Source: a virus (taxonomy: Duplodnaviria > Caudoviricetes). Taken from it: a stretch of DNA of 35,131 nt. Positions 747-33,376 of the stretch are shown in pieces. The number at the start of each line of letters is the position of its first letter. Position 1 is the first letter of the stretch. The DNA lies in the IMG/VR virus record IMGVR_UViG_3300017716_001227, positions 1 to 35,131 of that record; one strand, 5' to 3'. Below the pieces are notes generated by a model that was not told the DNA's origin, searched no databases, and worked only from the letters and a program-made list of their open reading frames with translations. Made by a program: the position numbers and the translations under genes.

Positions 747-1879
747 GTATCGTAAACGATAAATTTAGATTTCACATTCTCGGCTTACCACACACAGTAA
801 GTTCCAAGGAGTTTAACGCCTGCGCTTACACCCAAAAAGTAGTGAAGTTCGGGAAAATGATGACCGAGCGCGGCCACGAAGTAATCCACTACGGCCACGA
901 AGACTCCGATCTAATCTGCACAGAACACGTTTCTGTCCTGACAAACGATGACTTCAATAAAAGCTATGGATCACATGACTGGAGGAAGACATTCTTCAAG
1001 TTCAATACGAATGACCATGCCTACCAAACATTCTACCGAAATGCTATTAAGGCAATCGGGCAGCGAAAGAAGAAGAATGACTTCATCCTACCCTTCTGGG
1101 GAAGCGGAGTTCGTCCTATCTGTGACGCGCATCCTGACCTAATCACAGTTGAGCCGGGCATAGGATATGCAGGCGGACACTGGGCAAGGTGGAAGGTATT
1201 TGAATCCTACGCGATCTACCATGCGTTCTGCGGAATGCAGGCAGTAGGGAATTGCCAGCAAGATAACTATGCCGTGGTCATCCCAAACTACTTCGACAAA
1301 GAAGACTTCGACTTCTGTGACCAGAAAGAAGATTACTTTCTCTATCTGGGTAGGGTATATAGCGGAAAAGGTGTGGATATTGCTATAGATGCCACAAAAC
1401 GGGCAGGGGTTAAGCTGGTAATAGCAGGGCAAAAAGAGGAAGGTTACGAGCTACCAGACCATGTAGAGTATGTAGGATACGCTGATGTTCCTACCAGAAA
1501 GAGGCTCATGGCGAAGGCAAAGGCATCTTTCGTCCCAAGTCAGTATGTAGAACCATTCGGAGGAGTCCAGATCGAAAACCTACTCTCTGGCACACCTACA
1601 ATTACCTCAGACTGGGGATCATTCACCGAGAATAACTTGCATGGGATTACAGGATTCCGCTGCCGCACTATGGGTGACTATGTAGATGCGGTCGCAAATA
1701 TCGACCAGATCAACCCGTATGACTGCCGCAAGTTTGGCGAGAACTTCACGCTGGAGAAGGTTGCGCCTCTGTATGAAAAGTATTTCAGCGATGTCCTTGA
1801 TGTCTATGATGGCGCAGGATGGTATGCAAACGGAAACGGCATTGATGCCATGACGAGGTTCTATCCAAGTATTATATGA
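743..1879 (+). CDS. Glycosyltransferase, GT-B fold (GT4/Glycos_transf_1-like)
   Basis: RGHEVIHY, VIPNYFD, YLGRVYSGKGVDIAI and the EPFGGVQIE (E-x7-E) motif. Confidence 0.9.
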   Translation: MSIVNDKFRFHILGLPHTVSSKEFNACAYTQKVVKFGKMMTERGHEVIHYGHEDSDLICTEHVSVLTNDDFNKSYGSHDWRKTFFKFNTNDHAYQTFYRNAIKAIGQRKKKNDFILPFWGSGVRPICDAHPDLITVEPGIGYAGGHWARWKVFESYAIYHAFCGMQAVGNCQQDNYAVVIPNYFDKEDFDFCDQKEDYFLYLGRVYSGKGVDIAIDATKRAGVKLVIAGQKEEGYELPDHVEYVGYADVPTRKRLMAKAKASFVPSQYVEPFGGVQIENLLSGTPTITSDWGSFTENNLHGITGFRCRTMGDYVDAVANIDQINPYDCRKFGENFTLEKVAPLYEKYFSDVLDVYDGAGWYANGNGIDAMTRFYPSII

Positions 1880-2103
1880 GTGACACAACAATTACAGATG
1901 AGATAAAGTGCTTGTCACTCATTGAAGTGATGGGAATGCCAAGTGAAAGAAGGGAGATTGCTTTAGGCGTGTTGCGAGCTATTAAAGAGCGCGATGAAGT
2001 AATCAATGTAATACGAGAAACATTGGAAGAAAACAGACATCTTGCCGATGGGGATGACTGCACATTGAGGAAACTTAAAGCAATAGTTACAGACTGGAAA
2101 TAA
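1876..2103 (+). CDS. Hypothetical protein
   Basis: 75-aa ORF translationally coupled (ATGA) to the glycosyltransferase. Confidence 0.7.
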   Translation: MSDTTITDEIKCLSLIEVMGMPSERREIALGVLRAIKERDEVINVIRETLEENRHLADGDDCTLRKLKAIVTDWK

Positions 2104-2105
2104 AT

Positions 2106-2651
2106 ATGAGTGACTACACATTTGAATCAAACTACTGGGGAGATTGCTGTAATACATTTGACGAGGATCAGAAGCACTATGTTTATGCTCGCTATATGGG
2201 ATTGAAGCAAGTTGGCTACTCGTTTGATGTAGAGGGTAAATCCATTGTTGATATTGGCGGCGGCCCGACATCCATGCTTCTCAAGACACTTAATCTTAAT
2301 AAAGGACTGGTAGTTGATCCGATTAATTATCCAGTTTGGACGTTCTTAAGGTATTCCATTAAGAATATCAATGTGATGGTATCCCGTGGAGAGGATTTTA
2401 TCAGTAACGATAGATTTGATGAGTGCTGGATATACAACTGCCTCCAGCATACAGACGATCCAGAGCTAATCATTCAAAACGCACTAAAGTCAGCAAAGAC
2501 ACTAAGAATCTTTGAGTGGATCAATGTGCCAGCGCATGACGGGCATCCAGTAGAACTAACAAAAGAGAAGTTAGATCAATGGATAGGTAAAGAAGGTAAA
2601 ACAATCCAACTCGCCGAGTCAGGGTGCTACGGAACCGCTTACTACCTATGA
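2106..2651 (+). CDS. Class I SAM-dependent methyltransferase
   Basis: Motif I-like IVDIGGG; FDECWIYNCLQHTDDP matches the FD...vL(E/Q)H..dP pattern. Confidence 0.8.
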   Translation: MSDYTFESNYWGDCCNTFDEDQKHYVYARYMGLKQVGYSFDVEGKSIVDIGGGPTSMLLKTLNLNKGLVVDPINYPVWTFLRYSIKNINVMVSRGEDFISNDRFDECWIYNCLQHTDDPELIIQNALKSAKTLRIFEWINVPAHDGHPVELTKEKLDQWIGKEGKTIQLAESGCYGTAYYL

Positions 2652-3037
2652 ACTGGGATGAATACGCAATGAGCATAGCAGAGGTAGTGGCTAAGAAGTC
2701 TAAAGACCCATGGTGTAAAGTAGGCGCGGTGATCCTCCGAGAAGACCATTCCATAGCCTCTGTAGGGTATAATGGATTCCCTCAAGGTGTAGAAGAAGAC
2801 TGGTCAGACAGAGAAGAAAGAAGGAAGTATGTAATCCATGCAGAACAGAACGCCCTGAGATATACAAGTCCGGGCGAAGGAAAGACACTGGTATCCACCC
2901 TGCTCCCATGTAGAGATTGCCTAAAGACCATAGCCACCTATAAGATAAAGAGAGTCCTCTACAAAGATATTTACAAATCCGACCCGATAGCCTTAGAGAT
3001 AGCAGAAAAAATGGGAGTCACACTAATCAAATTATGA
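2648..3037 (+). CDS. dCMP deaminase (cytidine/deoxycytidylate deaminase family)
   Basis: SKDP..KVGAVI, GYNGFP, HAEQNA and PCRDC zinc motifs; start MNWDEY at 2648 with ATGA overlap. Confidence 0.93.
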   Translation: MNWDEYAMSIAEVVAKKSKDPWCKVGAVILREDHSIASVGYNGFPQGVEEDWSDREERRKYVIHAEQNALRYTSPGEGKTLVSTLLPCRDCLKTIATYKIKRVLYKDIYKSDPIALEIAEKMGVTLIKL

Positions 3038-3117
3038 GCGACGAAATCTTAGCACTAATAATAGCATGGAGCATAGTAACAACCTGCTTCATTATAGAAA
3101 TGATAACAAGACGATGA
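3034..3117 (+). CDS. Small membrane peptide (27 aa)
   Basis: MSDEILALIIAWSIVTTCFIIEMITRR*, ATGA-coupled at both ends; below the ORF-track cutoff. Confidence 0.55.
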   Translation: MSDEILALIIAWSIVTTCFIIEMITRR

Positions 3118-3263
3118 CCGCCTGCCACCAAGCATTCCTAAACTACTACCCCTACCTAACCGAGAAATACGAAGACTTCAACGTCTGGTTATTCTCACAA
3201 GAACTAATCTGCGTAGCCTTCAGACAAGGCTGGGCATCTTGCAACGATTATCGTAACCAATAA
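3114..3263 (+). CDS. Hypothetical protein
   Basis: MTACHQAF... start at 3114 by ATGA coupling. Confidence 0.6.
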   Translation: MTACHQAFLNYYPYLTEKYEDFNVWLFSQELICVAFRQGWASCNDYRNQ

Positions 3264-3264
3264 C

Positions 3265-3585
3265 ATGAATACTGAAATAAATAACACACCTAAAACGGAT
3301 AAATGCGTAAAAGACAACAAGCATATCAAATTCTTACAGGAAGATGCGTGGGATGGGGTGAACAAAATCACGTTTGAAAACCCAATAGTTCATCTATGTA
3401 GGATACTAGAGCGCGAGCGCGACGAGTTGAGGATGGAATTGAACGCTGAGATAAAAGCCCATAAAGAGACAACCGCTAAATGGAGTTGTGATAACATGGA
3501 AGTTACTGTTCTGCAATGCGATCTTAATCAAGCGCGGCGAAAAATAAATGAATTACTCAAAAAGCTATCTGTAACGATACTATGA
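3265..3585 (+). CDS. Hypothetical coiled-coil protein
   Basis: TPKTD...CRILERERDE pattern common in small phage proteins. Confidence 0.75.
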   Translation: MNTEINNTPKTDKCVKDNKHIKFLQEDAWDGVNKITFENPIVHLCRILERERDELRMELNAEIKAHKETTAKWSCDNMEVTVLQCDLNQARRKINELLKKLSVTIL

Positions 3586-4724
3586 ATACAACACTAATAC
3601 ACGGCGACTGCCTTGAAAAACTTAAAACAATTCCAGAGTCATCTGTTGACTCAATCGTTACAGACCCACCCTACGGATTAAATTTCATGGGTAAGAAATG
3701 GGATTACGACGTGCCAAGTGAGGCGATATGGCGCGAGTGCCTGCGGGTGTTGAAACCGGGCGGCTGCCTGCTGGCGTTCGCAGGCACCCGCACGCAGCAT
3801 CGGATGGCGGTGAGGATCGAGGATGCTGGCTTTGAGATTCGGGATATGATCGCGTGGGTATATGGACAAGGTTTCCCAAAAAGTCTGGACGTGAGTAAGG
3901 CGATTGACAAGGCGGCGGGGGCGGAGCGAACCGAGATCATCGGGAAGAGCGCGCGCCACGGCGGTGGGATCGTCGGCAATGGCAGTAGTTACGAAGTGAG
4001 CCCAGAAGTGCCGATGTTGTACGCCACCGAAGCCGCACGCCAATGGGCCGGATGGGGAACCGCCCTCAAGCCCTCGCTGGAGCCGATCACCGTCGCCCGA
4101 AAGCCTCTCGGTGAAAAGACGGTAGCTGCGAACGTGCTGGCGTGGGGCACGGGGGCAATCAATGTGGATGGGTGCAGGGTGTGGACGGATGGCGGAACTG
4201 CAAAAGGGAGCAAGCATCAAGGTGATGGAAATGGCATTTATGGGGCAGGGCTACACGGAGCTTGCGAAATAACGCAGTTGAACGCTGGAAGATGGCCAGC
4301 CAACCTGATCCACGACGGCAGCGACGAGGTGGTGGGGCTGTTTCCGAATACTAAGCCGGGCAGCGCAACACTCCATCCCGGCACAGATCGCGGTAGCCAG
4401 TTTGGGCAGATTGTCAGCAGCGCCCGAACAACGGGCTATGCCGACACCGGCTCCGCCGCCCGTTTTTTTTATGTGCCTAAAGCAAGCAAGCGGGATCGGG
4501 AAGGTTCAACCCATCCAACCATGAAACCCACCGACCTCATGCGCTACCTCTGCCGCTTAGTGACCCAGCCAAACGGAACCGTGCTAGACCCGTTCATGGG
4601 ATCAGGCTCAACAGGGAAAGCCGCGATGCTAGAGAAATTCAACTTCATAGGTATAGAACTAGACAAAACATACTTTGACATAGCCTCAAAACGAATAGCT
4701 ATCGTTAACGATAATTGCACATGA
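3582..4724 (+). CDS. DNA methyltransferase, beta class (N6-adenine/N4-cytosine)
   Basis: VTDPPY (motif IV), RVLKPGG, HPTMKP and LDPFMGSGSTG (motif I) in beta order; no cognate endonuclease nearby. Confidence 0.95.
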   Translation: MNTTLIHGDCLEKLKTIPESSVDSIVTDPPYGLNFMGKKWDYDVPSEAIWRECLRVLKPGGCLLAFAGTRTQHRMAVRIEDAGFEIRDMIAWVYGQGFPKSLDVSKAIDKAAGAERTEIIGKSARHGGGIVGNGSSYEVSPEVPMLYATEAARQWAGWGTALKPSLEPITVARKPLGEKTVAANVLAWGTGAINVDGCRVWTDGGTAKGSKHQGDGNGIYGAGLHGACEITQLNAGRWPANLIHDGSDEVVGLFPNTKPGSATLHPGTDRGSQFGQIVSSARTTGYADTGSAARFFYVPKASKRDREGSTHPTMKPTDLMRYLCRLVTQPNGTVLDPFMGSGSTGKAAMLEKFNFIGIELDKTYFDIASKRIAIVNDNCT

Positions 4725-5300: not shown

Positions 5301-5329
5301 AAGAGTGGCACGAGAATTGCTTGCCCTTA

Positions 5330-6414: not shown

Positions 6415-6948
6415 ATGAACACCACAGAAAACAAAACTATCAGCGACGAAGAACCAGCCGTTTATATCGGCACGTATAACAAATATAACAGCGGGAGTAT
6501 TGGCGGGGCTTGGCTTAGTCTTGAGGGCCACGATGAAGACTCGTTTTATGAAGCTTGCCGGTTGCTACATTCCGATGAGTCAGACCCCGAGTTTATGTTT
6601 CAATCCTTCCAAAACTTCCCCCGTGAGTTTTACAGTGAAAGCGGCTTTGATTCCGCCTTGTGGGACTGGCTGGAATTAGGCGAGGATGACAGGCAATTAT
6701 TGGCTCAATACTGCGATGCTATCGGCAGCGATGGATTGACCTTTGAACAAGCACGGGATGCTTTTCACGGAACGGCTGACAGTTTCGCAGAGTTTGCGGA
6801 ACGCATGGCCGCGGACTGCGGAGACATCCCCAAAGATATGCCAAGCTGGATTGTCATCGACTGGCAAGCTTCATGGGATTGCGGCCTTCGTTATGACTAC
6901 GCAACGAGCGAAGATGACAACGGTATCTGGTTTTTTCTTAATCACTAG
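6415..6948 (+). CDS. ardA: Antirestriction protein ArdA (DNA mimic)
   Basis: VYIGTYNKYNSGSIGGAWLSL, ESDPEFMFQ, IDWQASW; strongly acidic. Confidence 0.9.
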   Translation: MNTTENKTISDEEPAVYIGTYNKYNSGSIGGAWLSLEGHDEDSFYEACRLLHSDESDPEFMFQSFQNFPREFYSESGFDSALWDWLELGEDDRQLLAQYCDAIGSDGLTFEQARDAFHGTADSFAEFAERMAADCGDIPKDMPSWIVIDWQASWDCGLRYDYATSEDDNGIWFFLNH

Positions 6949-7358: not shown

Positions 7359-7513
7359 CTCTATGCGCCCCGCTATCGCGTTTTTATTACCTTTCCGCTA
7401 TAATGCCCCTTCCTCTTTTCTTTCGCGCATTCCTGCGGCTTTGATCGTTTCCGATAATCCCTCCACAAGATTTTTCCCTCCGCAACAAACCAAACACCTA
7501 ACAAAATAATAAT

Positions 7514-8363: not shown

Positions 8364-8927
8364 CTATTGTTGCCCTTCCACGGGTTCAAACTCCCCCTCC
8401 ACAGCATTGGAACATTCCACGGGAACAATATCAATATCGACTGCCTTTTTCGGCCCTTCCACATGGAGAGAAATCATGGCATTTATATTTAAACCCTTTC
8501 TATCGTGAAGGTTATTCTCATCCAGTCCCAAGGCTCTCGTTGCCATTTTCTCATATTGCGCGAGAACATCCAACCTTCCGGCTTGGTCTTTAATGTTCCC
8601 GCTTTTGTTCCGTATTTCAATCTGCTTTCTCTCCTCGGAAATCTGACTCAGCATGAAATTATAGTGATTCTCCGTTTCCCTCCGCATCACGTCCTCCATT
8701 TTTGGCGCAAGAGTATTTGCTACATCTTCACGCAATCTAAGCCTTTTGGAAATCCATCGGCCTTGCACCATCAAATTCTTCAGATAGTTCTTCGACATCT
8801 TGGAAAACTCCTCGGTCTTGAGAATGTCACCAAGCTCCGCACCCGCCATGTATAGCTGTTCGATCTTCGCCACATCCCACTTCCTTCGACGGGTTCCGAG
8901 TGATTCTGCATTATATTCTTGCTTCAT
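8364..8927 (-). CDS. HTH DNA-binding protein, terminase small subunit-like
   Basis: KWDVAKIEQLYMAG...GRWISKR resembles the TerS-type N-terminal HTH, followed by helical segments; start at MKQEY preferred. Confidence 0.55.
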   Translation of the reverse strand: MKQEYNAESLGTRRRKWDVAKIEQLYMAGAELGDILKTEEFSKMSKNYLKNLMVQGRWISKRLRLREDVANTLAPKMEDVMRRETENHYNFMLSQISEERKQIEIRNKSGNIKDQAGRLDVLAQYEKMATRALGLDENNLHDRKGLNINAMISLHVEGPKKAVDIDIVPVECSNAVEGEFEPVEGQQ

Positions 8928-8932
8928 ACCCT

Positions 8933-8961
8933 TTTCTATTCCATACACTTTCGCTTGTCAA
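8933..8961 (-). promoter_or_regulatory. Sigma70-type promoter, possibly leaderless
   Basis: Minus-strand TTGACA(8961-8956)-17 bp-TAGAAA(8938-8933), with ATG at 8927. Confidence 0.5.
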
Positions 8962-9281: not shown

Positions 9282-10898
9282 ATGAACATAAACGATCTCA
9301 TGGCAACAGTTGAATGGTCGCACCCCATGCAGCTGCACACAAAGCGAGGGCCGCGCCTGCTCAAGAAAGCTCCGATCACTCAGGCTTTTTGGAAAGTCTA
9401 TGGTGAGGACAAGGAACTATTCAAAAGGCAAATGGCCGATGCTGGTATCCAGCTTGGCAAGTTCCGCGAGGAATGGCAACTAACCCATTGGTCAGACGAT
9501 CAGCTTAAATTCAAACAGATAATCGTTTCCGATAATCCTGTTGAAGAGGTTGCAGAATTGGATTTGATCCCTCTACTCCACCCCGAGGGCTTGCTACCCT
9601 ACCAGCTAACCTCAGTCCAGATGGGTGTTGCCAGCATGAATAAATACAATCGGGTACTTTTAGGCCATTCTACGGGTGTAGGAAAAACATTTTGTGCCCT
9701 TGGTATTGCTAGAGAGTTAGGCAAACGCATTGCGGTTATCTGTCCTCGTCCGATTACCACCGATTGGCATAGAGCCGCAAAGATGATGGGCGTTGAGGTA
9801 TTTGAGATTTGCGGTTGGGAGTGGGCCAAAACTGGCAAAAGTCAGTTAGGCCGATGGACGGATGAAGAGAAGAAAGACTTCCGCTTCATGCTGCCTCCTG
9901 ATGTCCTTCTTGTATTTGATGAGGTTCACAGGGGCAAAGGTGAAGCCACTCAAAACGCCTATCTAGTCAGGGATTCAGTGAATCAAAACATCTCTGCCAT
10001 TGCCCTGTCTGCTACCATTGCAGATGATCCAACTAAGCTATGGGCGATTGGTCAGTTTTTAGGCTTACACCAAGGCGGTAAAGACTACTTCCGATTCCTC
10101 AGTCAGAACGGATGCAGGAAAACCCGCTTCGGAATGCAGTTCACAGGAGGCCATTCAGTCCTAAAGCAGTTGCATAGTCGTATCTACCCCGAAAAGGGTA
10201 ATCGGCTTCGACATTCTGATCTTGGTGATGCGTTTCCAGAAACAATGATTAAGGCCAGAGCCTTCGACATGGACAACGCTCGAAAGATCGCTGGCGAATA
10301 TGACGACCTCTGCAACCGAATCGAGGAGTTGCGGATGCAGGAAAACTTCTCGGCAAATGTTCTGGCAGAGCAAACCAGAGCAAGGCAGAGGATCGAAATG
10401 CTCAAAGCTCCCGCCGTAGCAGCAATGGCGCGTGACTTGATCGAAGAAGGCAACTCTGTCTTCATTGCAGTCAACTACACCGAAACCCGTGAATGGCTCA
10501 TGGAAGAATTGAAGACAGATTGCGCCATATTCGGAGGACAGAACGACATTGACCGCCGAGGCAAGATTGATTCCTTCCAGAATGACAAGTCGAGAGTCAT
10601 CATTGGAATTATACAAGCGTGCAGAGAAGGTCTAAACCTCCACGATCTGAACGGAAACTATGGTAGGGTTGCGTTAGTTATGCCTACTCCAAGCCCATTC
10701 GATTTGAAACAGGTCTTAGGCCGAGTGCATCGCGCTGGAGGCAAGTCTAAGTCAATTCAGTTCATCGTCTATGCAGCAGGCGTAGGTATCGAGGAGAATA
10801 TCTGTTCCAAGTTAGACGGCAAACTCAAACAGATGGATTTGCTGGCAGATGGAGAGATTGATGCAACGATCTCCCTTGCTCCACCAGTAGCTAAATAA
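9282..10898 (+). CDS. Superfamily 2 (SNF2-like) helicase
   Basis: LLPYQ, TGVGKT (Walker A), FDEVH (Walker B), LSAT, EGLNL and QVLGRVHRAG. Confidence 0.93.
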   Translation: MNINDLMATVEWSHPMQLHTKRGPRLLKKAPITQAFWKVYGEDKELFKRQMADAGIQLGKFREEWQLTHWSDDQLKFKQIIVSDNPVEEVAELDLIPLLHPEGLLPYQLTSVQMGVASMNKYNRVLLGHSTGVGKTFCALGIARELGKRIAVICPRPITTDWHRAAKMMGVEVFEICGWEWAKTGKSQLGRWTDEEKKDFRFMLPPDVLLVFDEVHRGKGEATQNAYLVRDSVNQNISAIALSATIADDPTKLWAIGQFLGLHQGGKDYFRFLSQNGCRKTRFGMQFTGGHSVLKQLHSRIYPEKGNRLRHSDLGDAFPETMIKARAFDMDNARKIAGEYDDLCNRIEELRMQENFSANVLAEQTRARQRIEMLKAPAVAAMARDLIEEGNSVFIAVNYTETREWLMEELKTDCAIFGGQNDIDRRGKIDSFQNDKSRVIIGIIQACREGLNLHDLNGNYGRVALVMPTPSPFDLKQVLGRVHRAGGKSKSIQFIVYAAGVGIEENICSKLDGKLKQMDLLADGEIDATISLAPPVAK

Positions 10899-10913: not shown

Positions 10914-10948
10914 AGCCCACAGGGAATAAAATCCTTGTGGGCTTTTTT
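10914..10948 (+). terminator. Intrinsic terminator, probably bidirectional
   Basis: AGCCCACAGGGA/TCCTTGTGGGCT stem with a T run after and an A run before, between convergent operons. Confidence 0.85.
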
Positions 10949-10969
10949 GTTGTTATCGGTTACGATACT

Positions 10970-11748: not shown

Positions 11749-11927
11749 TACGCTTCCTTTCCGAATTTCATCCACTCGTTTTCAGGCAAATCAAACCATG
11801 ACTTGTTGAACTTGTCGAAATCGTTTAACAAATTGATTAAAATTTGATCTTCCTGCATTTCTTTTGGCATATTACGGAGAATTTGAATAAGTTCCTCAAT
11901 TGAAATGTTAGTTTCTTCGTTTGTCAT
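11748..11927 (-). CDS. Chimeric mini-gene from a local duplication
   Basis: Starts MTNE like the downstream gene and ends KSWFD...EWMKFGKEA like the upstream gene; TAATG-coupled on both sides. Confidence 0.65.
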   Translation of the reverse strand: MTNEETNISIEELIQILRNMPKEMQEDQILINLLNDFDKFNKSWFDLPENEWMKFGKEA

Positions 11928-12898
11928 TACGCTTCCTTCCCGAATTTCATCCACTCTCCTTCGGCTGGATCGAACCATGACTTGTCGCCAAGGTCGATCA
12001 AGAGTTGGTGTTCTTGCACTTCTTGCGGCATTGAACGGAGGACTTCTGAGTTGGAGAAGTTACCGACATTGAGGAGCAAGAAGCGATGACCGGATGGCTT
12101 ATCGTCTTTACCTTGCTCGTTACGCACTCGGTTCCTTACTTCAGTTGAAGATAGCTTCTCGTTCTTCGCTGCTTCAAGAAGTTCTTGCTGTTTTTTAGCG
12201 GAGTCTTCCCCGAAGTTAGCGTTTCCGATCTCTCGGTAAACTGTGAACGGAAGCATTGGATCGCGCTTTGCAGCAGGGAAGGCACGGCAGGCACGGGCGT
12301 AACCTGACACGGTTGGATAGGACTTTTTAAAGTTAGCACACAACTGATTGACCACATCGTCATGTCCTGCGTTCTCCAAAGCTACCACTGAGTCACCAAT
12401 TATCCATTGTGCGCCGCTTTCGAGGGTCAGACCGAAGGCAAATGCTGCCACCCAGTCCTTCATCTCTACCTCTCCACGCGGAACGCACTGTGTCATTCCT
12501 GATCCAATATCGAACTTAGTGGTAAACGAAGATAACTCCAATCCCTGCTTGACGCTCTCCACAAGGGCGAGGGATTCGTTGACTGGTTCATCTTCGGTAA
12601 GTTCTACCTCTGCCTCTACTACTGGCAAGGCGAGGCGTTCTTCTGCCATTTCCTCAGCCATGTCCGAGTCAGCGGACATCTTCTCATACATCTCCAGCAT
12701 TTCATCTGGTGCATCGTCGCCAAGGTATTCGTTCTTCTGCAACTTTGCCCATGCTTTCTTGATATGGGTTTCGGAAATGCTGATCCCCGGCCATTCGGCT
12801 TTGGCGAACTCGGCCATTTGATTGAGGTACTTGGAAAGAGGAACAATGATTCCCTCTTGAGTTGGGCTAAACAATTCTAATTCTGGTTTCTTTTTCAT
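11927..12898 (-). CDS. LmbU-like DNA-binding protein with an acidic N-terminal extension
   Basis: QWIIGD...SYPTVSGYARACRAF...R...LPFTVYREI...QQELLEAA...LSSTEVR matches the LmbU-type W.IGD/HTH/LSFSHH pattern. Confidence 0.6.
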   Translation of the reverse strand: MKKKPELELFSPTQEGIIVPLSKYLNQMAEFAKAEWPGISISETHIKKAWAKLQKNEYLGDDAPDEMLEMYEKMSADSDMAEEMAEERLALPVVEAEVELTEDEPVNESLALVESVKQGLELSSFTTKFDIGSGMTQCVPRGEVEMKDWVAAFAFGLTLESGAQWIIGDSVVALENAGHDDVVNQLCANFKKSYPTVSGYARACRAFPAAKRDPMLPFTVYREIGNANFGEDSAKKQQELLEAAKNEKLSSTEVRNRVRNEQGKDDKPSGHRFLLLNVGNFSNSEVLRSMPQEVQEHQLLIDLGDKSWFDPAEGEWMKFGKEA

Positions 12899-16592: not shown

Positions 16593-16628
16593 AATTTTGT
16601 GGACGGAGGTTGTGCCATTCACAAGCTC

Positions 16629-16656: not shown

Positions 16657-16691
16657 TAGATTTTTGTAATTTATTTTTATCGGTTACGATA

Positions 16692-19700: not shown

Positions 19701-22700
19701 CGCCAACCGATTCAAGCTCATCAGTCAACTCTTGCTCGGTTACTTGTGGAGTCTTCTCTACCGCTGCATAGGCATCCTTGATGGATTTGATTTGTTCCTT
19801 AGTTGGGTTAGGCCCGTAGATGAACTCTGCTACATAGTTAGTGTAGGCATCCTGCTCGGCGCGGCCCATCATACTGAATCGAGCTTTCAACTCTGCCCTT
19901 GCTGCGAGCGTTCTACCCGCATCACTCGCTCCAATCATTGCAGTAGGTAGCCTGTTGATGTTTGCCATCATTATACCAAGCATCTTGCTATCACCTTCTG
20001 CCGCGAGTCTGATTGAATACTCAAACAAATCATTCACAAACAACGCTGCACCCATACTAATCTCACTTGCTGCGCCCGACTTATCTACCAATCTACCAAT
20101 GTCATTAAGTTCTTCGGCGTATGCCAATGCTTCTTTCCTATTTCCAGCCAGCTTCCCTAATGCGCGGAATGCTTCGGTAGTATTCTTCTCGGTTACTTTT
20201 GTAGGATCGAATTGCTTGCGGAGTAAATCTTTTGTTCTGGCGATGATAGCCTCTTGAGTTTCCACTTCCTCTCCCGCCTCTACACTCATTATTGTGGTGC
20301 GGCGAGTGGTTTTAGATGGTTTCTCACGACCTGTTGGTGCGGGTTCTACCGCTGACTTCTCTTCTACTTTTGCTTCCTCTGCTGGCTTTTCTGCGGATTT
20401 AGTTTTCTCGCCTATCTTACCCTTACCTACATTCACCGCACCAATCTCACCCTTTTTCGGAAGATACCCCATCAGTTCATTGAACTTCGCTGGCGCACCA
20501 CTCACTGCTTGCCATACTTCCCCAAGAAATTCTCTGACCGCATCACCGAATTGCTGGATCATCTGTTTAGCCCAAGTGCCAAACTCCATGCCAGCCTCGT
20601 AGATGTTCTGTCCTGCTTGGATGAAGTCTTCTTTGGTAGGGATTAGAACGCCGCCTTTTTCTCCGAGTTTTGGTTTACCTGCGGGTTGTGCGGCTGAAAG
20701 ACTTTTAACTTTTGCAACTAATTCATCAGGTGCAATTCCAGATCGAGCAACGCCATCCAAATCCATGAAAATATAACCAACTTTCCCATCCCCTTTTGGA
20801 TATGCGTATCCTTGAAAATCTTCATCAACTACTGCGCCAACTGGAAGTTGAGCTGGATCAACAAAATAGTTATCTGGAGTTTCAATAAAACCTTGTGTTA
20901 CACCAGAACTGCTTGGAGTTCCATTGCGATATGCACTTTTTTGATAATCATTTAGTGAATCAAATGATGGGAAACCTATGTCAGTTCTATCAAATCCCGC
21001 TGGCTCCGTTATCGTTTCCGATACTGCGGGGGTTGGTTGGTAGACATACAACTCGCCTTGCTTGACATAGCCTTCTGGGAGGGTGATGCCGTAGGTGTCA
21101 ACAGCGGATGCGGAAACTGGTCTGCGTCCTCCGTAGGACATGGTAGAAGCCGCAATCGTTGCTTTTTGGTTTTGGTTAAATACCCATTTCCCCCTTGTGG
21201 TTTGCGAGACAGAATAAGCGGTGGTCTTATTTAGCCCAAAACTTGCCAGCAACGCTTTTTCGGAGGGGGATTCCCCGCGAGCCAAAAACTGCGCCATAGC
21301 TGCTTCTGCTTTTTTCCTAGAAGCATAAATTTCACCGTCCGCGCTTTGCTTTTGGACTTTCGCTGCATCATATTCCTCCGGCGTCATCTGCTCTGGCTTG
21401 GTCACATCACGCTGGATAAGCGCAACCTCTGGCGCGGGAGCTTCTGCTGGTGCAGCAGAGGGAGCGGGGGCGGTCGCTTTCGCGGCCTCGGCAGCTGGTG
21501 TAGCTGCTCCAACTGGTTGTTCAGTTACCCCCGCTTTGAAAATATATTTACCACCTTCTTTAACATAACCTTTTGGTGGTTTAGTTTTTGAAACTTTTGC
21601 GCTCATTGCTGGCGCATTTGGGTCACGCAATGTTACTGGCTCAATCCTTACTCCTCCAACTGGGGCTTTGATATTGCCATCTCTGCCTCTACCTTTTTTT
21701 GGTTTCCAAGAATATGCAAACCCAGAATCGGATACATACAATTCCGCGTTTCCAGTCGGTGTTTCAATTATATCCCCTTCTCGGAATCCTTGTTTTTCTA
21801 AATGATTTGTGAGTGATTCGTTTGTTATCTTTGAAGCCTTGAATACCCTTACATCCTTTGGGTCGCGTTGCGTATATCCCAAGTCGGCGGCTTCTTCTAT
21901 TGTTACTTCTGCTGGTGCAGCTTGCTCGGTGACTGGTGCGGGAGTGGAAAGTTTTAATTCTACAAGCGCATCTTGAATGTCGTCTGGATGCGTGTTTGTT
22001 ATTATCTTTTCTTGAAGTTTAATATCTGAAACACCTTGTCTTTTAACTCCAACTCTTGATGCAAGTAAGTCTAACGATTCAGTTTCTTGAGATTCAATGA
22101 TTAGTTTTTGATATGCAGATAGATCATCCCATCTTTTAGATTCTTCTGGAGTTGGAATTGAAGAAACATTTTTTACCTTTGGAGGAACGACAACTTCTGG
22201 CGCGGCCTCTGCGATGGTTGGCGCAACCTCTGGCGCGGGAGCTTCTGCTGGTGCAGCTTGCTCGGTGACTGGTGCGGGAGAAATGTTTCTGCCAACTTGC
22301 TTGCCTTGCTGCATCGCCATGATGTCTTCGGTTGGATAACCAAAAATCGTAGATTTATTTCTCTCTTCAAGATAGGCTTTAGATTCCTCAACCGACATCC
22401 CGCTTGGCTTGGAAATGGGAACCTCTTTGACAACTGGTGCAGTTTCAGCTATTGGAGTTATTTCTTTTCCAACAGAATCAAGGATTACATTTTGTGCCGT
22501 TTCAATGTCTGGCAAACCAATCTGAATATCTTCCTTCTTTCCGTTTACAATTCTTTCTGCTCTGAATGTGCCATTAGAAGATTGCTGGACGGAATACCTT
22601 GTATCTCCATCGTAAGCAACTCCAGACATTTCAAGTTCATCTTTAAATTCTTGGCTTACTACTGGCTCAACTGGTGGCGTGACTACTTGCTCTACTGGCG

Positions 22701-24144
22701 CTTTAGTCCTCACAACTGGAATAGGCGTGACTCCCGGTATCACTTCTTTCCCCACCATAGACACAGGCGGTTCTTCGGTAACTATTGGCTTGGCAGGCGC
22801 GGCCTCCGTAGGTTGAACTGTCAACGATTGCTTGACAGTTGGCTCTGCGGGCGCGGCTTCTGGAGTGGTAATTGCTTTCGCCAATGCTGCCTGCTGTTCT
22901 TCTATTGTGGTTATCGGTTCCGATAAAAATTCTTCTCCAAGGGATTGCTTTAGTCCTGTAGCTTTCTTTTGCTCCTCGGATATTCGCATCCGCAATTGCT
23001 GCGCTTTTGGGTCAGTAGGCTCCAGCGTGTCTAACTCTTGCCTTAAAGAATCAATCGCGTTCTCGGATTGGTTAAGATCGTTGATAACCTTTTTGGTTGT
23101 AGAGTCAGTAGCGGAAAGTGATCTGGCTTCTCTATCTGCTGAACGATTGATGTCTTGTTCAGCTTTCTCTTCCGCTGAAAGAAATTCAACTCCCTTCAAC
23201 CCGCCACCAATAACACCGCCTGCCACCGCGCCCATAGTAGCTACTTGCGGAACATTCTGAAAGGTAGGAACATCCTTACCCTCTCTTTGTAGGGCGATGT
23301 TCTGTGATATTTGTTCTGCTGCCTCTTGAGTTCCCTCGGTCAAAGCCTCTACACCTCCAGCAGAAGCACCTTGCTTCAAGAACTCTCCAAGTGTTTTCTT
23401 TGTTACATCTTTTCCTCTACCAGTAAGAATGCGTGTTGCTATTCTCTCTGCTCCAGTTGATGCGGCCAATGCTCCAATTCCAGCGTTAGCAAGAATCAAA
23501 TCTAAGTTCTTACCACCATAGGATTGAGCTTCTGTAGCAGCACGATCAGCTTCAACTTCGTCAAGACCTTGCTCGCGGGAGTAGTCTCTGACTGATTGGT
23601 AGATGTCGCCTTTAATCGAGCCTGCCGCTTGAGCCGCGCCAATAGTAGCCTGCGCTCCAATTTGAACCGGTATTGATGCGCCTCCAGTCAATATGCCAGC
23701 AGCTAAAGACGGAAGCATATACCCCGCCATCTCTGGCCCAAGCGTCTCTGGAGATACAGCTACAGCTTTAAGACCAGCCATAACTTTATTGCCCAAACCT
23801 TTTCCTTCTGCCTCTTGGAACAAACGAGAAATTTCTTCTTTGTCTTGCTTCGCTTGAGCCGTAGTAAATTGGTCAATGTAGTCCTCTACTCCAGCAATCT
23901 CTTTAGACACCTTGTTATTTGCGCCAAATAGATCAGTAAACATCCTTACCGATCCAACTGCTGATTTCGCAAATGCACTGCCAGCCCTGCCAACTCCAGC
24001 TTCTAATTCTTCTGCTGCTGTTTGAAGTGTATCACCAATAGAAGTGCCTACTGGTTTTTCTATTCCGAGATATGAATCAGGATCAAATGACGTTTCTTTA
24101 ACGCCACCCCCTTCAGCAAGATAAGCGTCTGGATCAAAGGCCAT
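16798..24144 (-). CDS. Giant internal virion/DNA-ejection protein (2448 aa)
   Basis: FDPDAYL/FDPDSYL N-terminal repeats, Gly/Ala-rich hydrophobic helices, P/A/E-rich linkers, long helical C-terminal half; last gene of a podovirus-type tail operon. Confidence 0.75.
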   Translation of the reverse strand: MAFDPDAYLAEGGGVKETSFDPDSYLGIEKPVGTSIGDTLQTAAEELEAGVGRAGSAFAKSAVGSVRMFTDLFGANNKVSKEIAGVEDYIDQFTTAQAKQDKEEISRLFQEAEGKGLGNKVMAGLKAVAVSPETLGPEMAGYMLPSLAAGILTGGASIPVQIGAQATIGAAQAAGSIKGDIYQSVRDYSREQGLDEVEADRAATEAQSYGGKNLDLILANAGIGALAASTGAERIATRILTGRGKDVTKKTLGEFLKQGASAGGVEALTEGTQEAAEQISQNIALQREGKDVPTFQNVPQVATMGAVAGGVIGGGLKGVEFLSAEEKAEQDINRSADREARSLSATDSTTKKVINDLNQSENAIDSLRQELDTLEPTDPKAQQLRMRISEEQKKATGLKQSLGEEFLSEPITTIEEQQAALAKAITTPEAAPAEPTVKQSLTVQPTEAAPAKPIVTEEPPVSMVGKEVIPGVTPIPVVRTKAPVEQVVTPPVEPVVSQEFKDELEMSGVAYDGDTRYSVQQSSNGTFRAERIVNGKKEDIQIGLPDIETAQNVILDSVGKEITPIAETAPVVKEVPISKPSGMSVEESKAYLEERNKSTIFGYPTEDIMAMQQGKQVGRNISPAPVTEQAAPAEAPAPEVAPTIAEAAPEVVVPPKVKNVSSIPTPEESKRWDDLSAYQKLIIESQETESLDLLASRVGVKRQGVSDIKLQEKIITNTHPDDIQDALVELKLSTPAPVTEQAAPAEVTIEEAADLGYTQRDPKDVRVFKASKITNESLTNHLEKQGFREGDIIETPTGNAELYVSDSGFAYSWKPKKGRGRDGNIKAPVGGVRIEPVTLRDPNAPAMSAKVSKTKPPKGYVKEGGKYIFKAGVTEQPVGAATPAAEAAKATAPAPSAAPAEAPAPEVALIQRDVTKPEQMTPEEYDAAKVQKQSADGEIYASRKKAEAAMAQFLARGESPSEKALLASFGLNKTTAYSVSQTTRGKWVFNQNQKATIAASTMSYGGRRPVSASAVDTYGITLPEGYVKQGELYVYQPTPAVSETITEPAGFDRTDIGFPSFDSLNDYQKSAYRNGTPSSSGVTQGFIETPDNYFVDPAQLPVGAVVDEDFQGYAYPKGDGKVGYIFMDLDGVARSGIAPDELVAKVKSLSAAQPAGKPKLGEKGGVLIPTKEDFIQAGQNIYEAGMEFGTWAKQMIQQFGDAVREFLGEVWQAVSGAPAKFNELMGYLPKKGEIGAVNVGKGKIGEKTKSAEKPAEEAKVEEKSAVEPAPTGREKPSKTTRRTTIMSVEAGEEVETQEAIIARTKDLLRKQFDPTKVTEKNTTEAFRALGKLAGNRKEALAYAEELNDIGRLVDKSGAASEISMGAALFVNDLFEYSIRLAAEGDSKMLGIMMANINRLPTAMIGASDAGRTLAARAELKARFSMMGRAEQDAYTNYVAEFIYGPNPTKEQIKSIKDAYAAVEKTPQVTEQELTDELESVGGRTGTDLVGKINEEFTKATEKKTQQRKTEEEELDTEYKKVQKQADAEIEKLAKIQSDTPSFDPAAARQTANDVRAIVSTDLKQKPDMGRKAPWKSMLVAKLQEAGVELTAAETLADIVWRQHEINSLSRELSSINKAIEKGPISEIVKAIKETPLEDQQNPNWRYEVMRDYLRRAGLNVAQSERIAKLMDISLQKRFTMAQEQAFTDAISKTAPWKTGDTRSRRAFQKVLQALRAGALDPARNVLSDMAALNGWTGFTPEQYKVLLKYDAILADPKSADATKAEAHKAIQDVISKAKLPIRARDVIGQYYDAQALSGIPTVTVNIFSPAGIAVKNALTQALNGVVTARPEQITASLTTFIDSIKSWANTVAFSFKNNVTVYSNVEYLVNDEGLLKLYKKGVDQFNNGKTSRDRADGVKNMMIGMMDYVRRVLNALDYGAIASLQNQSVSKYALAAMQAKGMSSKDGAKMLNAMMEEKRNFYNDQIAIGTDKNKAAVLADEFFISAWRQALTDAKLPAQQVMDAALNDAMSAVGRNRQSLDAFREEETDIRDNGVTSFPAIWLLETMANAANRQDSQFIKIFSRIIYGFAIVPARVLRETAWFSPYGAVRFAYDSIAKKMGKTSPYAQSLGNDLQRRQRLTETIAGSLVMLAFGAAMSASTDDEDDEKPFKIVVTGNGPLRSEDPQYYDSWVKNNRPNTVRVQFGKTKFTLNTMRGFEVFAWPAMMLGAVDDWHIRRKQGRTTNTPLQMQDAAIVAGNVLSASLRRGPYAFAAKPLFEAYGDRGVESLAKSLAFPAKTIIPVLGSSLASNLSNFLNEPVDRRTLEGALWANVPFIGPTVAPKSLNAFGEPAMANDAADKIFKLGVPIVFDIPTDRDSVNLHELVLKQGGGPSIPTRNQLAQRLDRQPTNKEYEMFAKEYGAVLTKSMKKNYEKLFAMKPEAYTKVVERIGNRARDIAENKVRVAAKKP

Positions 24145-28312: not shown

Positions 28313-28331
28313 AGATTATCGTTACCGATAA

Positions 28332-28986: not shown

Positions 28987-28992
28987 TACAAT

Positions 28993-30849
28993 TTAATTAA
29001 CGATATTGTATTCCCAATATTTTTCTTGGCAACACAAAAATGGTTCGCATTCTTGATTTTCTTCTGGGCAGTCACCAACTGGGGAATCATCGTTGTTTTT
29101 AATGTTCGCCATCAACCTTACTCGGTCAACTGTAGCTGCACCAATCAGATTGATTTTAATCTGAAACTCACTGCCCTCTACTGATGGGATACCCGCCAAG
29201 TCATTGCACTCACTTGGGTCTGGAGTGTTAAACTTGTAGCGTTTGTAGCGATTACCACCCCGCTGCGGGACACATTCAGTCACCACCGGAGAACATGGAT
29301 TGCAGCCAAAAGTAGTAGGCACTTTAAGTTCCGACCAGCAAGGATTACTATCTGCGCGAAACTCAACGGAGCTTTCGACCTCTCCCTTAATCTCACTCAT
29401 CCACATTTCTCCGCCAGTAATTTTTTTGCGGAGGAACTTGTTTGTTGCTCCGCTTCGGTTGAAATCATACCTGCCAGTAGTGAAGCAGGATTCAATCTGC
29501 CTTGTTCCGTCTGGGCCAAAGTCATCAGTTTGTTCTGATGTCATTTCATACAAACGATTCCTGTTGTCTTTATCAAATGAGAAAGCAAACCCACGTTTCT
29601 GTCCAGCTATCAACGCCGATAACATTTGAGTTGGTCGAATGCCAGTCCATAGCCCGTTCCAACGGAAAGAAAGTTGCGCGTCTGGTGATGGGCTTGCAGA
29701 TTGATCTAAGTCCAACGCAATAATCCCGCGATGGTATCTATGCAAGCCCGGAGCTGATGTTCTTTTAATCTCAGGCGCAACTGTGCTTAATAGATAGTTG
29801 TCAAAAAACATGGTTGATGCAAATTGTCTAAGCCAAGGCGTGTCGCGCTCAACCCATTTGTTTACTTCCCGTGAAAGTTTACGAAGTGAGAAGTATCTAT
29901 TAAACTCAGATTGAGTATTTGAATAAAACGCCCAACCATCGTGTGACCTAAACCAAAGCTCAGAGTTTACCAATCCCAAGTATGGACTTGTGCATCCGCG
30001 CCCAAGTAATGAGATGCGTTGGATGTTAGTTGTGTTCCATTGCGCTCTTGGGATTGATACATCCATTGCGAACGCTCCGTTGCCAGTTAAGACTACAAGC
30101 TGACCTTGGCCGCGAAGGTTCAGCCCAAGCTCTGGCATTACTTTCATGCCAGTTATGTTTCCCATCATGCTTGGAGTAGAAAACGCCCCTCCCAATTCCC
30201 AGTAAGTTATCTCAGTGAATCTACGAGTGTTGGTAGTATCAGTAAATCCAGCACCAAAAATAATATCTGATGCGTAGATTTGGTTGAATCTATCCGAAAC
30301 AAAAACTCGGCCAAACGCATACTCCATGATCGTGCCAATCGGCATTTCTCGATTGAATGGATTTAGCCTTACTGCGTTTGTATTAAGATCGCCATTCCAT
30401 GCAATCGGGTTTTGGTATCCGTTCTGGATGTATAGTTGATCTTCAGCCTGCACGAAAAAGGTGTGCATCAAACTTCCATCATTCCATGTCCACCCATCCG
30501 CGACTGGGAGTTTGTATGCGTAAGCAACATTGTTTACCATCTTCAGAAAGTAAATAACCCCCGCGACTGATATTACTATTCCATCAGCAGATTCGTATGT
30601 TGTCCTCCGATATGGATACGCGCCTTGGAAGTTGCCAGTCTGAATATCGTTTACGATAGTTTCTGATTGTCCAGTTCCCGCTACGATATTGATATTCCTG
30701 ATACTTGGGCGAGTGCGGTTGATACCACCTCGGAAGGTTCGGTTCACCGATTCGGCTACATACATCTCAGGCAAATACGATGGATGCGTTGCAGCGTCTT
30801 GTGCTATAACACTTGTGAACCCATCAAAGACTGAACCTTCTGCTGGCAT
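28993..30849 (-). CDS. Tail nozzle/DNA stabilization protein (P22 gp10-like)
   Basis: 618-aa beta-propeller-like sequence (NRTFRGG..TRP, GRVFV, GRGCTSP, LWFRSHDG) in podovirus tail context. Confidence 0.65.
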   Translation of the reverse strand: MPAEGSVFDGFTSVIAQDAATHPSYLPEMYVAESVNRTFRGGINRTRPSIRNINIVAGTGQSETIVNDIQTGNFQGAYPYRRTTYESADGIVISVAGVIYFLKMVNNVAYAYKLPVADGWTWNDGSLMHTFFVQAEDQLYIQNGYQNPIAWNGDLNTNAVRLNPFNREMPIGTIMEYAFGRVFVSDRFNQIYASDIIFGAGFTDTTNTRRFTEITYWELGGAFSTPSMMGNITGMKVMPELGLNLRGQGQLVVLTGNGAFAMDVSIPRAQWNTTNIQRISLLGRGCTSPYLGLVNSELWFRSHDGWAFYSNTQSEFNRYFSLRKLSREVNKWVERDTPWLRQFASTMFFDNYLLSTVAPEIKRTSAPGLHRYHRGIIALDLDQSASPSPDAQLSFRWNGLWTGIRPTQMLSALIAGQKRGFAFSFDKDNRNRLYEMTSEQTDDFGPDGTRQIESCFTTGRYDFNRSGATNKFLRKKITGGEMWMSEIKGEVESSVEFRADSNPCWSELKVPTTFGCNPCSPVVTECVPQRGGNRYKRYKFNTPDPSECNDLAGIPSVEGSEFQIKINLIGAATVDRVRLMANIKNNDDSPVGDCPEENQECEPFLCCQEKYWEYNIVN

Positions 30850-31937: not shown

Positions 31938-33067
31938 GATGTTACGGATTTAATGATTGAAAAATTGATTACTGGTTGATCTATAGCAATTCCAAGAATT
32001 GATACAAGGTTGATTGTAAATGATGTTCCTGCAACTATTTTGCCCGGAACAATTATATATGTATTGGAACCACCAGAATATGATAAAGCAATAGTATCTG
32101 TTAATCCAATTGTAGTATTATTTACAGTAAATGAAACCCATGTATTCAATACAGGTGCAGCACTAACCAAGGTTATTGACCCGCAAATTTTGTTGATGGT
32201 TACTGGAGTTGTTCTTGAAGTTATCTGAGTGACAGTTCCTCCTGCACCAGTTGCGTATCCAACACCTGCTGATGGATCAGTGCTAACAATCCCGCCGACA
32301 ACTTGAAGTTTTGCTGCTGGAGTTGGAGTTCCAATTCCTACGTTTCCTGCGCTTGTTACACGCATCTGTTCAGTATTGTTTGATTTTATGATGAGCGGAT
32401 GCGCTGAAGATGTTCCTACTTCAGCCTGCGCGTTTTGTTCTGCGGTAAGATCGACCGATACTCCACCCTGAGTTGCGATATATGAAGATGATGCCGCTCC
32501 AGATGTATTGGTGTTATTGACCCTTACAGCAGTTTGCGCTGCCTGAGATTGAGATACGTCTAACTTTACTGCTGGAGAGTTAGTTCCGATACCCACACTT
32601 CCATTTGTGTTTGATTGGAGGTTCACGCTCGTTCCATCAATCTGAAGGATAGCTGAGTTAGTAAAAATCCTTGGTGTAGTTCCTGCGGCTTGGATACGAA
32701 GATCGTAGTCATCCGAGTTTGGATTTTTCAAATCCATGTAAACATTTCCTGTCCCGCCAACCTCAATACGAGTGTCGCCACTTGGGTTGTTCAAAAGCAA
32801 CTCAGTTCCGCTAATAGAGGAAAATGCTACACCGCCAGTTGAATCTCTTTTAACAATTGTATTCGGAGTATTTGTGCTTACAGCTTGAGTGAACTTGATA
32901 AACCCATCCGTAACTATCGGAATACTACCCTCTGTTCCTACAAGACGCTTTTGGCAGAACAATGAATCCTCAACTACAAATGCTTTTGCTGTGCTTGTTG
33001 TTTCAAGCGGTTCACAAAATAATGGATAGTCTATTTCGCAAGGAGGCGCGGGAGTGCATGGAGTCAT
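31934..33067 (-). CDS. Tail fibre protein
   Basis: Two GxVGIGT..P..KL.V fibre repeats; N-terminal domain shared with 30849-31937. Confidence 0.8.
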   Translation of the reverse strand: MTPCTPAPPCEIDYPLFCEPLETTSTAKAFVVEDSLFCQKRLVGTEGSIPIVTDGFIKFTQAVSTNTPNTIVKRDSTGGVAFSSISGTELLLNNPSGDTRIEVGGTGNVYMDLKNPNSDDYDLRIQAAGTTPRIFTNSAILQIDGTSVNLQSNTNGSVGIGTNSPAVKLDVSQSQAAQTAVRVNNTNTSGAASSSYIATQGGVSVDLTAEQNAQAEVGTSSAHPLIIKSNNTEQMRVTSAGNVGIGTPTPAAKLQVVGGIVSTDPSAGVGYATGAGGTVTQITSRTTPVTINKICGSITLVSAAPVLNTWVSFTVNNTTIGLTDTIALSYSGGSNTYIIVPGKIVAGTSFTINLVSILGIAIDQPVINFSIIKSVTS

Positions 33068-33082
33068 AAGGCTTTTAGTTTA

Positions 33083-33358
33083 TTATAGTGCTTGCCAAGC
33101 TGTTCCATTCCACACAAACATAGCGTTCGATGTGGTATTGAAATACAATGCTCCAACAATTAAAGCATTACCAGAATTATCCAGTGTTGGTGCGGTTGCT
33201 TTTGCGCCCAAGTAAACAGTGTTGAATTGAGTAACTTGATCTGCTGCATATTGAGCTATGCGAGCATAGTATGCTGCGCGTTCGGCAATTGCATTCATCG
33301 CGTCCTCACTTGGGCCGCACGGGTTACATTTAGAACTTCTGGAATTTGAACAGCTCAT
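33083..33358 (-). CDS. Small tail-associated protein
   Basis: YLGAKATAPTLDNSGNALIVGALYFNT...VWNGTAW fibre module. Confidence 0.7.
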   Translation of the reverse strand: MSCSNSRSSKCNPCGPSEDAMNAIAERAAYYARIAQYAADQVTQFNTVYLGAKATAPTLDNSGNALIVGALYFNTTSNAMFVWNGTAWQAL

Positions 33359-33376
33359 AATATCGTTTACGATAAT

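Follow-up and report, generated by a model that had tools for sequence, protein, structure and literature searches.

Why should a phage carry the same short palindrome every few kilobases along its genome, between its genes and deep inside unrelated ones? The question is raised by the IMG/VR entry IMGVR_UViG_3300017716_001227, a complete virus record of 35,131 bp and a piece of a ~54-kb freshwater phage; this whole stretch of DNA is called the window here. The element in question is a 14-bp dyad, TATCG-N4-CGATA, whose copies form a lattice over the window. This lattice is real and conserved, and the sites behave as a selected genome-wide set of about one per 2–4 kb. It is a kind of feature already known from the Cluster O mycobacteriophages, here with another sequence and with a candidate reader, the product of gene 11927-12898.

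A preliminary description, made from the letters alone, had listed 11 perfect copies, and all of them stand at the coordinates and with the central bases that it gave. In 100 dinucleotide shuffles the mean was 0.03 copies and the largest count 1, close to the roughly 0.04 expected by chance in that description, so the enrichment is real. Allowing up to one mismatch gives 18 matches in the window, compared with 0.59 expected; these include the five one-mismatch sites already described (2399, 3249, 3566, 7443 and 9521) and two others, at 6720 (centre GCAG) and 29608 (centre ACGC), which are both off-consensus and look like chance. Seven of the 11 perfect copies lie in coding sequences (CDS) and four between genes (10954, 16678, 28317 and 33361), in keeping with the reported occurrence in both settings. 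The peptides said to be imposed within genes, IVNDK, IVSDN, IVTDN, IGTDK and IVNDI, were all found, and two further in-gene sites are read in a different frame, as SETI/SEPI. The sites of the window are as follows.

748..761: perfect site, centre TAAA; codons 2-6 of the glycosyltransferase gene 743-1879; the same site occurs in 9 genomes
2399..3579: three one-mismatch copies, at 2399, 3249 and 3566; the mismatch is in the inner arm each time; possibly decayed sites
4700..4713: perfect site, centre TTAA; final codons of the DNA methyltransferase gene 3582-4724
7443..7456: one-mismatch site, outer base G, centre TTTC; early region; this 14-mer is present 14 times among 29 loci of relatives
9521..9534: one-mismatch site; at codon 80 of the helicase; 9 relatives have a perfect site here
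10954..10967: perfect site, centre GTTA; between convergent operons, just past the terminator-like hairpin 10914-10943
13351..13364: perfect site, centre GTTA; within gene 12938-13891, SSB-like as judged by reading its sequence, without a family match
16678..16691: perfect site, centre GTTA; between the terminator-like hairpin 16728-16697 and the sigma70-like match 16656-16629
18231..18244: perfect site, centre GTTC; codon 1967 of the giant gene (2448 amino acids)
21010..21023: perfect site, centre TTTC; codon 1041 of the giant gene
22912..22925: perfect site, centre GTTC; codon 407 of the giant gene
28317..28330: perfect site, centre TTAC; 4 nucleotides ahead of the start of gene 27350-28312
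30645..30658: perfect site, centre TTTA; codon 64 of the virion gene 28993-30849; the same site occurs in 21 genomes
33361..33374: perfect site, centre TTTA; 2 nucleotides ahead of the start of the tail-fibre gene 33083-33358

The anatomy of the motif was drawn from 451 sites in 23 genomes. It extends to 16–18 bp: position −1 is T in 77% of sites, position −2 is C in 1%, and the base directly inward of each arm is G/T in 98%. The KWWM centre first proposed is valid for the lineage of the window and is not general, other lineages having TCAA/TTGA and CCAA/TTGG, the centres seen in the distant genome G030. Matching is sharp: each lattice-bearing genome holds 11–29 perfect sites and 0–11 one-mismatch sites, one-mismatch words are modestly over background, and two-mismatch counts are near it. 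Variants altered in both arms number 3, compared with 451 canonical sites. The arms are invariant while the centres drift, which favours a dyad in DNA over an RNA hairpin.

Selection is also visible against the genetic code. When synonymous codons were resampled with the proteins kept, 2000 draws produced a mean of 0.204 in-CDS sites and a maximum of 3, compared with the 7 observed; together with the dinucleotide shuffles, this rules out chance or an amino-acid artefact. Across the 23 genomes, at least 183 of the 451 sites (at least 40%) fall within core CDS, and up to 268 lie outside recognised core CDS. The codons at in-CDS sites are either frozen or rebuilt synonymously. At codon 64 of the virion gene, ATC and GAT are fixed in all 21 aligned genomes, the background among invariant Ile/Asp columns being 10 of 142. 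Seven of 22 genomes write the invariant helicase peptide ALSATIAD as a full site, and the other 15 use different synonymous codons for it; five of the seven have no perfect site at helicase residues 80-120, a stretch in which nine other genomes have one. A site near the C terminus of the terminase is shared by 18 core genomes and by G030, in the latter by residue number. Sites are thus held, gained and lost via synonymous codons, and that some are old while others move locally fits a need for coverage rather than the control of one gene. The phage pays for this coverage: about 20 fixed words of 10–16 bp constrain which codons, and at times which residues, its helicases, terminase and virion proteins can use. 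Because codons are bent genome-wide, the sites must serve something that is needed everywhere along the phage DNA.

The spacing of the sites is consistent with such a role. The proposed interval of 1.4–3.3 kb with a single 5.4-kb gap holds if the one-mismatch sites at 7443 and 9521 are counted, whereas the perfect sites alone leave a gap of 6254 bp between 4700 and 10954. Under-dispersion was found throughout: the coefficient of variation of the gaps is 0.42–0.79, compared with a random mean of 0.87–0.95, and is smaller than the random value in every one of the 23 genomes, with P<=0.05 in 20 of them, in a test that treated all genomes but the window as circular, some being incomplete, and that drew on related genomes. 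Within the ~7-kb giant gene, the density of sites equals the genome average. Over the largest open reading frame (ORF) of each genome, 53 sites fall in 140,913 bp, or one per 2.66 kb, and their places change from lineage to lineage; the count keeps three of the 23 genomes in which the largest ORF encodes a protein of ~820 amino acids without a site.

The lattice is conserved in relatives. All 29 loci found with the helicase hold at least two perfect sites, and the reversed pattern, used as a control, has no match in the same 29 records. Seventeen genomes of 44–60 kb have 15–22 sites each, and further genomes 23–29. The distant G030, whose capsid and large terminase are 51% and 41% identical to those of the core clade, carries 26 sites with the same arms. 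Scans of IMG/VR with the pattern itself gave at least 132 loci and 110 loci, of which 50 per scan (100 of 242) were followed, with preference for longer records and those with several hits. Every one of the 23 further records with at least three sites (8 + 15) carries genes of this phage family; no clear family gene was seen in the two-site records G084 and part of G054, and the two-site records G116 and G136 were outside the fetched set. The lattice was found solely in the phage family that encodes the 11927-12898 protein. A large sister group, with capsids at 53–59% identity, is represented here by four small contigs, two of which bear sites (L574, 3 in 6.1 kb; L624, 2 in 2.7 kb) and two of which, L612 (1.7 kb) and L625 (2.9 kb), have none.

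A sister clade with capsids at 48–50% and terminases at 41–42% identity provides the contrast, with 0 or 1 site in 10 of 10 records. An alternative lattice in this clade was ruled out, as none of the eight genomes examined contains a gapped palindrome in more than 4 copies or a 12-mer in more than 6. Two lattice-bearing lineages and a lattice-less sister clade with the same virion module constitute a natural comparison that narrows the reader to a few proteins. The core genes common to G030 and missing from the lattice-less clade are 11927-12898, 8364-8948, the SSB-like gene, DnaB, a small HNH gene, one initiator family and one tail gene. As separate observations on the lattice-less clade, one of its capsid genes lies in a metagenome contig of 129.6 kb (L594), more than twice the phage length and either a prophage or a concatemer, and one of its records carries a gene resembling dimethylarginine dimethylhydrolase/amidinotransferase (L330:13264-14232; Pfam E 9e-12).

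Among these proteins, one gene of the replication/recombination block encodes the best candidate reader.

11927..12898, minus strand: best candidate reader, 323 amino acids; an unmatched N-terminal helical domain, a ParB/Noc/KorB/LmbU-like DNA-binding domain at ~142-268 and a five-stranded beta C-terminal domain

The predicted structure, with a predicted local distance difference test score (pLDDT) of 82.6, shows helices predominating in the N domain, a middle domain that is helical too and a C domain built of five beta strands. For the middle domain, Foldseek gave a probability of 0.99 to Noc and 0.8–0.9 to Spo0J/ParB. In VIA, Spo0J scored Z 7.2 (106 residues aligned, root-mean-square deviation (rmsd) 4.4), ParB-parS Z 7.1 and KorB-OB Z 5.4 (110 of 114 aligned, rmsd 3.5); the SopB DNA-binding domain is also among the structural matches. 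The LmbU hidden Markov model (NF038070) matched residues 146-269 with E 1.2e-6, and sequence searches of the PDB found nothing relevant. As for the N-terminal domain of canonical ParB proteins (ParB_N, with its arginine patch) and its cytidine triphosphatase (CTPase) activity, none of the eight proteins inspected has a GxxR-type motif among its first 140 residues, and PF02195 rises over its cut-off in none of five genomes. With regard to a Walker-type partner ATPase such as ParA/IncC, a crude Walker-A scan of four genomes, with no ParA profile run, returned only DnaB, the large terminase and one unassigned ORF of G030.

The 11927-12898 protein is present in every lattice-bearing genome fetched of at least 35 kb, G030 included, and has no homologue in the eight lattice-less genomes, where the best E is 2.6. 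Over 25 core genomes, with identities as low as 56%, 7 of 14 columns of its putative recognition helix do not vary. Two residues that are not part of the helix-turn-helix (HTH), T219 and R255, are unchanged throughout the core clade and in G030. In KorB (T211 and R240) and SopB (R219), specificity residues are likewise described outside the HTH (PMC3597684), and, to judge by the aligned ranges only, T219 and R255 may correspond to them. The protein is the best candidate since its recognition helix is conserved where that of the small-terminase-like protein varies, and we consider it probable that this ParB-like protein reads the sites. Beside it, a short ORF on the minus strand (11748-11978) overlaps the end of the reader gene and terminates in a near copy of the reader's C-terminal residues; it could be a partial duplication of the putative pairing domain, as a decoy or as debris.

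Our working interpretation, held tentatively, is that the sites are bound by a dimer of the 11927-12898 protein and serve to tile the phage chromosome and organise it while it replicates, and not to act as switches of individual promoters. The reader would contact each half-site through its HTH and residues in the following helices, as ParB, SopB and KorB do, and would pair through its beta-rich C-terminal domain. Without a CTP clamp domain it would not slide, nor spread out of a small number of loading sites in the manner of KorB (PMC11790492), and in this scheme the lack of spreading is the reason for having many fixed sites instead of a few, which would account for their even spacing. The bound array would then bridge or compact the phage DNA, labelling it as self while it is replicated and packaged, and the few sites beside promoter-like sequences may add local repression. 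The preliminary description had likewise favoured a parS-like architectural dyad for a dimeric protein over a normal operator, and the under-dispersed spacing, the density in the giant gene, the synonymous codons and the predicted ParB-like fold support this; its statement that no described phage system resembles the lattice was too strong, given Cluster O. A broader proposal, possible and on the doubtful side, is that lytic phages reuse a chromosome-segregation DNA-binding domain as a whole-genome self-mark: a CTP-free dimer of the ParB/KorB type would sit every few kilobases, the coated DNA would be replicated, shielded from host defences and packaged, and the Cluster O repeats would fall in the same undescribed class. 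If true, this would be a genome-organising or self-marking use of the ParB fold without CTP.

Several observations weigh against binding by the 11927-12898 protein or against an architectural role. By E-value none of the fold matches reaches significance (0.15 for the best of the ParB family), every VIA score is below Z 8 and the top VIA match is Raf1 (Z 7.6), and the LmbU score of 28.6 bits is under the cut-off of 125. The small-terminase-like, SSB-like, DnaB and HNH genes track the lattice equally well, and, because the lattice-less clade lacks the whole early/replication module, presence and absence amount essentially to one contrast. Adding G030 to the core clade leaves just 2 of 14 recognition-helix columns without variation, even though the two have identical arms. 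The spacing is no more than moderately regular, with gaps of up to 12 kb in G005. Of the 163 between-gene sites, 81 lie within 20 nucleotides of the called start of the next core gene, which fits a regulatory role too; intergenic spaces in this phage family are short anyway, which bears on this proximity. Finally, among sites with an AA/TT centre the coding strand has the AA form in 96 of the 103 within genes and 68 of the 82 between genes, counts that include orthologous sites repeatedly and in which the coding strand is A-rich.

The alternative that survives best keeps the same ParB/KorB-like reader and assigns it to global transcription control, the sites being operators or roadblocks that time or silence expression. 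The proximity of sites to start codons supports it, as does site 16678, which precedes the replication/recombination operon and has a sigma70-like −35 match 22 nucleotides downstream; sigma70-like matches as a whole are not above shuffles in a promoter scan (15 vs 18.3). Precedents exist, L5 having more than 20 sites in promoters and short intergenic spaces (PMC9283540) and KorB repressing from distal sites (PMC11790492). We nevertheless consider this reading unlikely, as the share of sites inside core CDS, the average density within the giant gene and the shifting of sites within a gene between lineages are all against it, and stoperators are asymmetric and of one orientation only, whereas the phage sites are dyads. 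A lysogeny-silencing version is without support, since neither a tyrosine integrase (PF00589) nor a resolvase (PF00239) was matched in the five complete genomes tested for each; a prophage kept as a plasmid would still be compatible with this.

A second protein of the same set of core genes has been weighed as the reader.

8364..8948, minus strand: rival reader, small-terminase-like; predicted HTH and helical hairpin

Here the sites would be dispersed packaging signals, so that packaging could start anywhere on phage DNA and not on host DNA. The family tracks the lattice, being found in 26 lattice-bearing genomes and in none of eight lattice-less ones (E<=10, broad profile), and all 45 loci found with this protein hold at least two sites. 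In the lattice-less clade the matching position is occupied by another gene, which is Terminase_2-like (E 0.0055, below the cut-off). Three sites occur in the ~230 bp upstream of the small-terminase-like gene in both G093 and G097, and in G030 one abuts the gene start. The protein itself argues the other way: only 2 of 15 columns of its putative recognition helix are invariant in 25 core genomes, and the gene is exchanged (24–42% identity, nine genomes) while the arms stay the same. Binding by pac-type small terminases is described as weak and lacking sequence specificity, and the pac site of P22 as asymmetric (PMC9611059). The identity of the protein also rests on weak matches (atlas 0.94 to a Terminase_5 cluster; Foldseek E>2), the fold search with its model gave generic helical hairpins only, and distant small terminases sought for a co-variation comparison gave no loci in IMG/VR. 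We regard a packaging role of this kind as quite improbable. Two observations concern the gene itself: it sits in the early region, where it is read from the opposite strand and is a long way from the large terminase, and in two genomes (G093:C1 32435-33245 and G097:C1 31261-32071) a local cluster of sites with relaxed centres surrounds it and runs through the early region.

A reader supplied by the host, be it a nucleoid organiser, an SOS-type or other regulator or the licence of a defence system, with the lattice-less clade infecting another host, would explain why the arms are identical across lineages that share 41% identity in the large terminase and 24% in the candidate reader, as a fixed host reader would give. 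No unrelated phage with the lattice was found, the 23 records with three or more sites all belonging to the family among the 100 of 242 loci followed; moreover, the preferred centre varies by phage lineage. These points make a host reader very improbable.

The sites could also be cleavage or nicking targets, of the kind of the single-strand interruptions of T5, phiKMV and tf and made here by the conserved small HNH protein, or RNA hairpin signals. The near all-or-none matching described above, the coding-strand bias of the centre and the small HNH gene near the terminase, which tracks the lattice, are in line with this, and phage tf has 14 nicks in 46 kb (PMC3517423). The known nick consensus is, however, asymmetric and on one strand only in that source, unlike the phage dyad, and for RNA, compensatory stem change is almost nil (3 vs 451), the two inner bases are often unpairable (GTTA, TTTC) and folding is weak, at −2.9 to −7.9 kcal/mol with flanks. 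Such roles appear very improbable. Last, the XRE-type HTH regulator of the core clade (L032:5009-5365, outside the window), although it has HTH_3 over the Pfam cut-off, a nearly invariant recognition helix in that clade and a presence in 16 of 17 core relatives, is hardly credible as the reader, for it is absent from the complete genome G030 with its 26 sites (filters off, E<=0.05), whose own small HTH-like ORF is unrelated in sequence, and so does not track the lattice. Iterons of the lambda-O type were rejected, because the initiator families differ (fam107 in 10 of 18 and fam219 in 6 of 18 core genomes) with the motif unchanged.

The phages in question are uncultured lake phages, which the broader self-marking proposal takes to be lytic. 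The sequencing runs that hold the window are freshwater metagenomes; at least half of its words are present in 5 of the 24 runs listed, with no RNA run among those listed. The genes of the window include a glycosyltransferase, a dCMP deaminase, a DNA methyltransferase, ArdA, a helicase, an exonuclease, tail-fibre genes and a 2448-amino-acid protein of no family. Relatives, at 49–60 kb, add a lambda-O-like initiator, DnaB, the XRE-type HTH protein, HNH nucleases and the large terminase, and the capsid and portal labels used for them are our own readings of the sequence, without a family match. One scan of GTDB genomes with the large terminase found no integrated copy and returned a single 51.8-kb contig (L162, G098:C3) in a Woesearchaeota metagenome-assembled genome; all 20 sites of that assembly are on this one phage-family contig, which is probably misbinned. 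Cultured phages yielded distant helicases only, without a match to the DNA-binding domain of the candidate reader.

Several further features of the window were recorded. An ArdA-type anti-restriction gene is located in the early region (6415-6948, plus strand; Pfam E 4e-17). The giant gene (16798-24144, minus strand; 2448 amino acids) has no Pfam or PHROG match, measures ~1700–2800 amino acids among relatives and, judged by its position, likely encodes an ejected internal virion protein. A small paralogous gene pair on the minus strand (11425-11775 and 15062-15424) is alike in its N- and C-terminal residues. Two tandem beta-solenoid paralogues with YdcK repeats (15645-16112 and 16158-16622) are preceded by identical sigma70-like matches (TTGACA-16-TAGATT) at 16801-16774 and 16656-16629 on the minus strand, 145 bp apart, and beta-solenoid repeats are probably the source of a second palindrome, GCGCA-N12-TGCGC, with 8 copies in the window.

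A search of the published literature at the level of titles and listings found no description of this exact motif or of such a system, and the lattice is best understood next to systems that it partly resembles. The nick sites of T5, phiKMV and tf have a one-stranded asymmetric consensus (PMC3517423), which the lake-phage dyad does not fit. LmbU is described as a homodimer with a central HTH DNA-binding domain, acting as a cluster-situated activator in actinomycetes (PMC6510168); the phage protein differs in its additional N- and C-terminal domains, which are unmatched, and scores far below the family cut-off. The stoperators of L5 (Cluster A), more than 20 in the genome and many of them in short intergenic spaces, are similar in number to the lake-phage sites, of which there are 15–29 per genome. 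They are asymmetric 13-mers, bound by a monomer and oriented with transcription, and belong to temperate phages (PMC9283540), whereas the lake-phage site is a dyad biased in its centre only, with at least 40% of its copies in CDS, and the search for an integrase or a resolvase found neither.

KorB and its operator OB, from the IncP plasmid RK2, come closer, with a ParB-family DNA-binding domain, a site of 13–16 bp, specificity that lies partly outside the HTH and sites both near and far from promoters (PMC3597684, PMC11790492). KorB is, however, a CTP-dependent sliding clamp with KorA as co-repressor (PMC11790492). The phage protein, by contrast, has no ParB_N/CTPase domain, and its sites lie in coding sequence at ~20 per 54 kb. 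Noc has many dispersed sites. The systems ParB/parS, SopB/sopC and Noc/NBS supply the best fold matches, and the 16-bp dyad of sopC the same geometry (PMC3597684); in the phages the CTPase domain is missing and the sites are even, rather than clustered at an origin. The lattice would work like a ParB/KorB site system, from which the missing CTPase domain sets it apart.

The nearest counterpart is found in the Cluster O mycobacteriophages, such as Corndog, whose genomes hold over 30 copies of a 17-bp dyad, its arms invariant and its centre variable and A/T-rich (PMC4351075). These repeats are intergenic and in CDS, with a slight bias of A to the transcribed strand; the phages have no integrase, and that account gives the function as not known while predicting a dimeric binder and a non-promoter role (PMC4351075). 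Corndog gp90 is annotated with a ParB-like nuclease domain and does not match the DNA-binding-domain profile of the candidate, which found nothing in the eight Corndog proteins tested. The two lattices differ in sequence and in geometry (7-3-7 compared with 5-4-5, the latter extending to 16–18 bp), and the intergenic sites of Cluster O crowd one arm (PMC4351075), whereas those of the lake phages are under-dispersed. They are alike in their many copies, invariant arms and A/T-rich variable centres, in and between genes. Dispersed dyad repeats without a known function have been in print since 2015 in Cluster O, and here they come with a candidate reader that can be tested.

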